From: Escherichia coli
GTDB lineage: Bacteria > Pseudomonadota > Gammaproteobacteria > Enterobacterales > Enterobacteriaceae
Assembly: GCF_045037415.1 (NCBI RefSeq)
Contig: NZ_CP173438.1
DNA length: 64,000 nt
Reading direction: 5' to 3' (one strand)
Position numbers and translations under genes: made by a program. Shown piece after piece: positions 41,887 to 42,269 of the stretch (position 1 is the first letter of the stretch; every line of letters begins with the position of its first letter). The notes under the pieces were generated by a model. That model saw only the letters and a list, made by a program, of their open reading frames with translations, did not search any database and was not told the origin of the DNA.

Positions 41887-42033
41887 TTATTGCTGCGCTT
41901 TCGTTGCTGCGCCAGAAATCGCGTTACCGCCATCAGAAATGTCTTCACCAACGCCACGCGTGGTGTTGCAGGCAGTTAATACTGTTGAAAGCACCAGAAC
42001 AGAAAAGATCGCTGCAATTGTCTTCTTCACCAT
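41887..42033 (-). CDS. ecnB: entericidin B small lipoprotein
   Basis: Manual reverse-strand translation gives [48 protein letters not shown] (48 aa, lipobox LTAC); below the 60-aa cut-off of the ORF track. Confidence 0.88.
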
Positions 42034-42143
42034 AACGTCTTCCTTTTAGGTAATGTTATTTATGTTTGCCTATAGCAAATTAATAATAGACAACATCGCC
42101 AAAAATGACGGAAATCTGATGATTTTTCGGAAGAGAAGAAAAA

Positions 42144-42269
42144 TTAGCTGGCAGCGCGGGAGATGGAGTTGCCGAGGTGTTTGATATCTTCGCCGAAACC
42201 TCGAGCGGTGTTACAGCCCGTAAGCAGCGTGCTGGCAAGCAAAACAAGAACGATAAGGCGTTTCATCAT
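42144..42269 (-). CDS. ecnA: entericidin A small lipoprotein
   Basis: Manual reverse-strand translation gives MMKRLIVLVLLASTLLTGCNTARGFGEDIKHLGNSISRAAS (41 aa, lipobox LTGC); not in the ORF track. Confidence 0.88.
   Translation of the reverse strand: MMKRLIVLVLLASTLLTGCNTARGFGEDIKHLGNSISRAAS

Follow-up and report, generated by a model that had tools for sequence, protein, structure and literature searches.

The window analysed here, a stretch of 64,000 nucleotides of Escherichia coli DNA (contig NZ_CP173438.1), carries, as we conclude with high confidence, the chromosomal entericidin locus of this species, in which the paralogous genes ecnA and then ecnB lie between efp and sugE/gdx. That the two small genes are ecnA and ecnB and that they encode lipoproteins is virtually certain. 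When all ORFs of at least 20 aa were listed on the minus strand of 41500..42700, ecnA was found at 42144..42269 (minus strand, ATG start, 41 aa, MMKRLIVLVLLASTLLTGCNTARGFGEDIKHLGNSISRAAS) and ecnB at 41887..42033 (minus strand, ATG start, 48 aa), both uninterrupted. The first-pass annotation, made from the letters of the window, had described two tandem minus-strand lipoproteins of 41 and 48 aa, and both frames were recovered at its coordinates with the same translation and a lipobox in each. Translating the minus strand, as it had suggested, gave no interruption in either frame and lipoprotein-like sequences in both. Its remark that the pair is invisible to the ORF track is true of its own threshold only: the genes are absent from its list because frames below 60 aa were ignored, and both are present in public annotation.

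Several lines of evidence bear out the proposed assignment to ecnA and ecnB. EcnA scores 114.9 bits against the NCBIfam model NF007319 (antitoxin entericidin A equivalog; cut-off 86) and EcnB 121.9 bits against NF007487 (toxin entericidin B equivalog; cut-off 94), with far lower cross-scores (44.5 for EcnA on the EcnB model, 46.5 for EcnB on the EcnA model). Both also pass the gathering score of 23.3 of the Pfam family PF08085 (Entericidin), with 26.4 bits for EcnA and 30.2 bits for EcnB. RefSeq annotates both genes at matching coordinates in SK1144, Esc7 and K-12, the K-12 counterparts being b4410 (ecnA) and b4411 (ecnB), and the gene order efp-ecnA-ecnB-sugE-blc-ampC is conserved. Aligned by BLASTP, the two proteins share 24/44 identities (55%, E = 4e-14), which marks them as homologous and clear paralogs. 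The mature cores had been called near-identical, which is an overstatement, since 13 of the 19 quoted residues are identical (68%) and the whole proteins agree at 55%.

The locus is already known and is not a variant. It was reportedly described by Bishop and co-workers in 1998 (J Mol Biol 280:583), all RefSeq annotations of E. coli include it, and few small proteins are seen more often in E. coli proteomics than EcnB. The 1.6 kb around ecnA and ecnB were found in 5425 of 5426 complete E. coli genomes, with blc, sugE, ecnB, ecnA and efp as RefSeq features. Of the matches to the blc-sugE-ecnB-ecnA-efp segment, three are plasmid-borne, and the segment occurs twice in at least one of the complete E. 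coli genomes; Citrobacter-derived blaCMY-blc-sugE plasmid modules are a known possibility for such matches. Compared with the entericidin locus of E. coli K-12, we found the same protein lengths, the same placement between efp and sugE/gdx and the same RefSeq product names, at about 98.3% DNA identity over window positions 33197..43979. There is no substantive difference from K-12, and the window represents another strain.

As a whole, the window shares 99.995% identity with E. coli Esc7 and runs in reverse orientation relative to K-12 (about 4.355-4.419 Mb). Over the 64 kb, only two single-base indels and one substitution near 60372 separate it from Esc7; the indels, an extra A and an extra G in Esc7 near ~8891 and ~47694, respectively, may stem from sequencing errors in either assembly. 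At ~33188..33197, about 274 bp of K-12 sequence comprising most of yjeN are missing and only yjeO is annotated. Further K-12-only insertions of ~100-147 bp near 9722/9732, 43961/43979 and 45094/45100 are probably REP-type elements. The K-12 sRNA AspX (b4825, K-12 4366839..4366951) maps to window ~51322..51434 (plus strand), overlapping the 3′ end of aspA; no Rfam match at gathering thresholds was obtained at this position, and the PGAP annotation of this strain lacks it. Directly after tRNA-Phe (pheU, 55646..55721, plus strand) begins a strain-specific island (55722..64000) that is absent from K-12, homology to which ends at about 55835. It encodes a P4-type integrase (55919..57181, plus strand), a gene annotated as a frameshifted AAA-domain protein (57633..61147, plus strand), a divergent phosphoethanolamine transferase (61256..62755, minus strand; best match CptA with 108 bits at a cut-off of 404, and only weak similarity to MCR models) and an Adr-like outer-membrane protein (62936..63676, minus strand). 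At the same tRNA, SK1144 carries a different island with Dr/Afa adhesin genes.

Frames of 41 and 48 aa are short, and the Shine-Dalgarno sequence of ecnA is weak (-3.2 kcal/mol, rank 55 of the 238 frames scored below), as would be expected if ecnA and ecnB had arisen by chance in a non-coding spacer or were remnants of pseudogenes. A collection with one genome per species was searched with a degenerate DNA motif for CNT-x-RG-x-GEDI, which yielded at least 120 loci; since the exact motif was required, the species sample is biased and all counts apply among the loci listed. Within the listed loci, phmmer found at least 198 entericidin-type small ORFs, and at least 82 of the loci are linked to efp, most of them also to sugE and blc. 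Selection was evaluated with the Nei-Gojobori method against the window's own ecnA and ecnB. Median pN/pS was 0.10 for ecnB (85 orthologs) and 0.35 for ecnA (72 orthologs), again among the loci listed and with synonymous sites near saturation. Compared with E. albertii, dN/dS amounted to 0.02/0.42 for ecnA and 0.03/0.63 for ecnB, and ecnB differs from that of E. whittamii by eight synonymous and no nonsynonymous changes. At nonsynonymous sites, ecnA evolves ~3.5 times faster than ecnB. These low ratios show that both genes are protein-coding and under purifying selection across genera of the Enterobacterales. In addition, mass spectrometry of E. coli detects few small proteins as often as EcnB, which attains, in healthy cultures, up to about 70,000 copies per cell (PMC12529367). 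Together with family models scoring above curated cut-offs, the mutual match of EcnA and EcnB (E = 4e-14) and the conserved gene order, this leaves chance frames or pseudogene remnants with a practically negligible probability; the Pfam and NCBIfam matches, the purifying selection and the mass spectrometric detection refute that reading.

The amino acid sequences of both proteins show a basic N-terminus, a hydrophobic stretch (maximum 15-residue hydropathy 2.49 in EcnA and 2.43 in EcnB) and a lipobox. Both fit the pattern [LVI][ASTVI][GAS]C with a short mature peptide (~20-30 aa) after it. In EcnA, the lipobox LTG↓C with Cys19 (codon 42215..42213, minus strand) ends an 18-residue lipoprotein signal peptide, leaving a mature peptide of 23 aa, CNTARGFGEDIKHLGNSISRAAS. 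In EcnB, the lipobox LTA↓C with Cys22 (codon 41970..41968, minus strand) ends a 21-residue lipoprotein signal peptide and the mature peptide has 27 aa. The ecnA frame opens with ATGATG, and translation could in fact begin at the second ATG, giving 40 aa and the same mature product. The helical hydrophobic moment of mature EcnA is 0.68 compared to 0.29 +/- 0.10 in shuffled sequences (0 of 1000 shuffles as high), and that of mature EcnB is 0.49 (shuffles about 0.28; 4 of 1000 as high). Thus, both mature peptides are predicted to be significantly amphipathic, in agreement with the amphipathic helical character that Bishop and co-workers reportedly claimed for the mature entericidins in 1998. Mature EcnB is glycine-rich with a net charge of -1, a composition that is not typical of a pore-former and counts against a toxin/antidote role.

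In the Gram-negative lipoprotein pathway, precursors exported by Sec are processed at the lipobox cysteine by Lgt, LspA and Lnt, which lipidate and cleave them. EcnA and EcnB would accordingly enter this pathway as pre-lipoproteins, their signal peptides directing Sec export. Lgt, LspA and Lnt would act at Cys19 of EcnA and Cys22 of EcnB and produce lipid-anchored amphipathic peptides of 23 and 27 residues. The Lol system should sort both to the outer membrane, because residue +2 is Asn and not Asp. For EcnB, lipidation and membrane location are a curated assertion of UniProt entry P0ADB7, as quoted in PMC12529367.

Small ORFs with a hydrophobic N-terminus, one of which is repressed by an sRNA (MicA acting on ecnB; PMC3551931), would also be found in a type I toxin-antitoxin system of the Hok/Ldr/Ibs kind, in which a hydrophobic inner-membrane toxin is paired with a cis antisense RNA. 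We regard this as extremely improbable for ecnA and ecnB. The hydrophobic stretch represents a cleavable lipoprotein signal with a lipobox at its end rather than the transmembrane helix of a toxin, MicA is trans-encoded, its gene lying 1.5 Mb away in K-12, and the proposed antidote is a paralogous protein. A search of Rfam over 41350..42950 at E <= 1 found no antisense or toxin family and returned only Guanidine-II riboswitch matches. The type I reading is contradicted by this null result and by the lipoboxes on both peptides.

ecnA and ecnB lie in what, according to the first-pass annotation, would otherwise look like an empty gap of about 600 bp between gdx and efp. At 41712..42320 (609 bp), this is the largest annotation-free gap in the window, but, besides the two genes, it also contains a riboswitch, a terminator and a conserved promoter block. 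The 51-bp spacer between efp and ecnA contains a GC-rich hairpin (42284..42317, minus strand; -22.6 kcal/mol, z = -2.96) that is not followed by a U-tract and probably stabilises the RNA or acts as a leaky terminator. Scanning this spacer revealed no terminator-like site and no sigma-70-like promoter site. Since the U-tract is missing and no promoter is recognisable in the 51 bp, ecnA may be read through from efp.

ecnB, in turn, would have its own promoter in the 110-bp spacer between ecnA and ecnB. We aligned 11 sequences from Escherichia, Salmonella, Citrobacter, Enterobacter and Phytobacter and found a near-invariant block at 42071..42093 (minus strand), while the rest of the spacer diverges. 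Its 5′ part, TTGTCTATTATTAA (42093..42080), includes a candidate sigma-S -10 element, CTATTAT (42089..42083), and its 3′ part, TGCTATA (42077..42071), is a -10-like element that would belong to the initially transcribed region, with the transcription start predicted near 42077. The ecnB promoter has been reported to be sigma-38-dependent, with a -10-like pause element within +1..+20 and an overlapping OmpR site (PMC5389655). This published promoter fits 42071..42093, a mapping that we infer from conservation; sigma-S dependence and OmpR overlap come from the literature, and the conservation is what the alignment contributes. Upon treatment with a LolCDE inhibitor, ecnB was induced with genes of the sigma-S regulon, among them osmB, whereas ecnA was not (PMC5105897).

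ecnB further possesses a strong Shine-Dalgarno sequence, a predicted site for the published repressor MicA and a strong intrinsic terminator. The Shine-Dalgarno sequence AAGGAAG (42039..42045, minus strand) lies 5 nt upstream of the ATG, and forms an anti-SD duplex of -5.6 kcal/mol; here, AAGGAAGA is invariant in all 11 aligned species. A pairing site for MicA is predicted at 42004..42032 (minus strand), covering ecnB codons 1-10. Here, MicA nt 2-27 (K-12 b4442) reach -23.2 kcal/mol compared to -11.5 +/- 2.9 in 500 shuffles, one of which was as good, and repression of the ecnB mRNA by MicA is experimentally established (PMC3551931). The intrinsic terminator (41844..41881, minus strand) lies directly 3′ of the ecnB stop codon and consists of a 12-bp stem (AACGGTACGACA/TGTCGTGCCGTT), a 4-nt loop and a T-rich tail (-21.4 kcal/mol, z = -4.66; 0 of 200 shuffles as stable). 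Downstream, a Guanidine-II (mini-ykkC) riboswitch at 41729..41775 (minus strand; 49.3 bits, gathering score 32) belongs to sugE/gdx and not to the entericidin genes; the annotated sugE/gdx start (41711) follows 17 nt further downstream. In the mechanical ORF list, sugE already begins at a TTG at 41774 (126 aa), compared to 105 aa in the annotation. As a start at this TTG would overlap the riboswitch, the start giving 105 aa is the sensible one.

The first-pass annotation had further suspected that short ORFs were missed elsewhere in the window and had proposed a small-ORF search with ribosome binding site scoring. With annotated features of 60 aa or more masked, we searched the remaining 56 gaps (6512 bp) for frames of 10-59 aa, scoring anti-Shine-Dalgarno pairing, lipobox and hydropathy in 238 start/stop combinations. 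Both entericidin frames were retrieved, but Shine-Dalgarno energy ranks ecnB only 18th and ecnA 55th of 238, and several antisense or spurious frames have a better Shine-Dalgarno score, e.g., 42169..42288 (plus strand, -7.4 kcal/mol). A lipobox together with a hydrophobic signal occurs in the ecnA and ecnB frames only. Ribosome binding site scoring alone is therefore insufficient as a small-ORF detector, and it is the lipobox and signal-peptide features which discriminate ecnA and ecnB. In no other frame of the 56 gaps did an ATG and a Shine-Dalgarno match coincide with a lipobox or a hydrophobic feature. Two candidates were rejected, a 17-aa “lipobox” frame at 34739..34792 (plus strand) that lacks a hydrophobic core (maximum hydropathy -0.09) and, at 16816..16878 (plus strand), a hydrophobic frame of 20 aa whose Shine-Dalgarno match is weak. 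The suspicion of missed short genes was correct for one annotated case, yjeV (25904..25957, minus strand; 17 aa, MRFYFYSQAVDESGVTR; K-12 b4670, “hypothetical protein” in PGAP), and otherwise produced no credible candidate in the 56 gaps. yjeV overlaps the 3′ end of queG by 18 nt and is the only other RefSeq-annotated CDS below 60 aa in the part of the window common to K-12. A cut-off of 60 aa thus hides real genes which ribosome binding site scoring alone recovers poorly; signal-peptide and lipobox features, homology and cross-species dN/dS are effective for such small genes.

Next, the locus was compared with other entericidin loci and small lipoproteins. In Citrobacter, Enterobacter, Salmonella and other Enterobacterales, the order efp-ecnA-ecnB-...-sugE-blc is as in E. 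coli, and loci of the Citrobacter/Enterobacter/Salmonella type share the ecnB promoter block and ribosome binding site with E. coli. However, the spacing between ecnB and sugE is about 890 bp in those genera, in many of the listed loci, compared to 175 bp in E. coli. In Citrobacter werkmanii (locus L009, ~9400..10500), a regulator ORF of ~200 aa with a LuxR/GerE-type helix-turn-helix (Pfam GerE, 46.9 bits) lies between ecnB and sugE; presumably, this is ecnR, a name from Bishop 1998. The absence of this gene, the presence of which was confirmed in the one Citrobacter locus, is the only difference of the E. coli locus from the Citrobacter, Enterobacter and Salmonella loci, and the lack of the regulator in E. 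coli has already been described. OsmB is, like EcnB, a short stationary-phase lipoprotein under sigma-S and osmotic regulation; unlike the entericidins, it is not part of a paralog pair, and its sequence family is unrelated to theirs. Atu8019 of Agrobacterium tumefaciens resembles EcnB as a small lipoprotein with entericidin domain and lipobox, but it is solitary, without ecnA, and was reported to be surface-exposed, vesicle-associated and non-lytic (PMC7296081). Among the loci listed, tandem entericidin-type pairs without efp/sugE linkage were also observed outside the Enterobacterales, in Halomonadaceae (L021, L022, L046, L050, L052, L063, L065, L083, L087, L124) and Chthoniobacterales (L055, L069). 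Pairing of entericidin genes either arose more than once or is ancient. The verrucomicrobial entericidin-type members carry long C-terminal extensions ending in PPQWPK.

Concerning function, the account of Bishop et al. (1998) given in PMC7296081 states that overproduced EcnB is bacteriolytic, that EcnA counteracts it and that ecnA protects in cis. In the published model, control is exerted by RpoS and EnvZ/OmpR (Bishop 1998, to the extent summarised in PMC7296081, PMC5389655 and PMC5105897). The pair would then act as a stationary-phase, osmolarity-tuned toxin/antidote system. As the physiological function of EcnA and EcnB, we consider this mechanism close to, and at best, an even proposition.

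The distribution of both genes bears on this question. Among the 82 listed efp-linked loci, which come from different species of a motif-biased sample, 64-66 contain the tandem ecnA-ecnB. At least 12 Enterobacterales species among these 82 listed loci have ecnB at the syntenic position without ecnA (L012, L018, L037, L038, L042, L045, L060, L062, L068, L100, L106, L107), including Superficieibacter, Phytobacter massiliensis, Pseudescherichia vulneris, Kluyvera, Tenebrionibacter, Intestinirhabdus and a Serratia species. Eleven of these 12 species have an intact ecnB frame, the exception being Kluyvera (L060) with its altered and extended C-terminus. Also in 11 of the 12, the gap between efp and ecnB measures 148-231 bp, which is not enough to accommodate a 40-aa gene together with the promoter of ecnB; within the 550-bp gap of Intestinirhabdus (L107), no ecnA ORF was found. 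In two more species, Salmonella enterica subsp. arizonae and Citrobacter amalonaticus, ecnA seems to be frameshifted (L077 2670..2855; L127 8933..9118) and the ecnB next to it is intact; they are counted within the 66 of 82, and the frameshifts are possible assembly errors. A single EcnA-type gene is present in 3 of the 82 listed efp-linked loci. Since ecnA was lost naturally beside a retained ecnB, an obligate antidote role of EcnA is not supported.

These losses are what would be expected if EcnB were an abundant sigma-S-induced lipoprotein of the outer membrane or of vesicles with an envelope or surface role, EcnA a faster-evolving, dispensable paralog, and lysis an overexpression artefact. 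The ~3.5-fold higher nonsynonymous rate of ecnA, the induction of ecnB but not ecnA by the LolCDE inhibitor (PMC5105897) and the about 70,000 EcnB copies per cell (PMC12529367) point in the same direction, as do the viable ecnA deletion in the Keio collection, the surface-exposed, non-lytic EcnB homolog of Agrobacterium and the EcnB homologs in outer-membrane vesicles of several pathogens (PMC7296081). On the other hand, lysis upon EcnB overproduction and protection by ecnA in cis, as PMC7296081 relates them from Bishop 1998, argue for the toxin/antidote model, and the same source mentions a secreted EcnB homolog of Enterobacter C6-6 active against Flavobacterium (Schubiger 2015). Moreover, the tandem pair is kept in 64-66 of the 82 listed species, ecnA is still under purifying selection, and the species sample is motif-biased and drawn from the loci listed. 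Weighing both sides, we hold an envelope role with artefactual lysis to be a serious possibility, to which we lean somewhat less than halfway.

With similar reserve, we tentatively propose that EcnB is a highly conserved, very abundant lipoprotein of the sigma-S regulon, placed in the outer membrane or in vesicles, and that EcnA is dispensable and was lost repeatedly in several lineages of the Enterobacterales. Doubts about a toxin/antidote role of EcnA and EcnB have already been raised (PMC7296081), and the comparative data presented here add natural losses of ecnA at the syntenic position beside a retained ecnB. The “toxin” and “antitoxin” product names of the two genes rest on thin evidence. 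The remaining interest lies in the unsettled function of the entericidin family rather than in this window.
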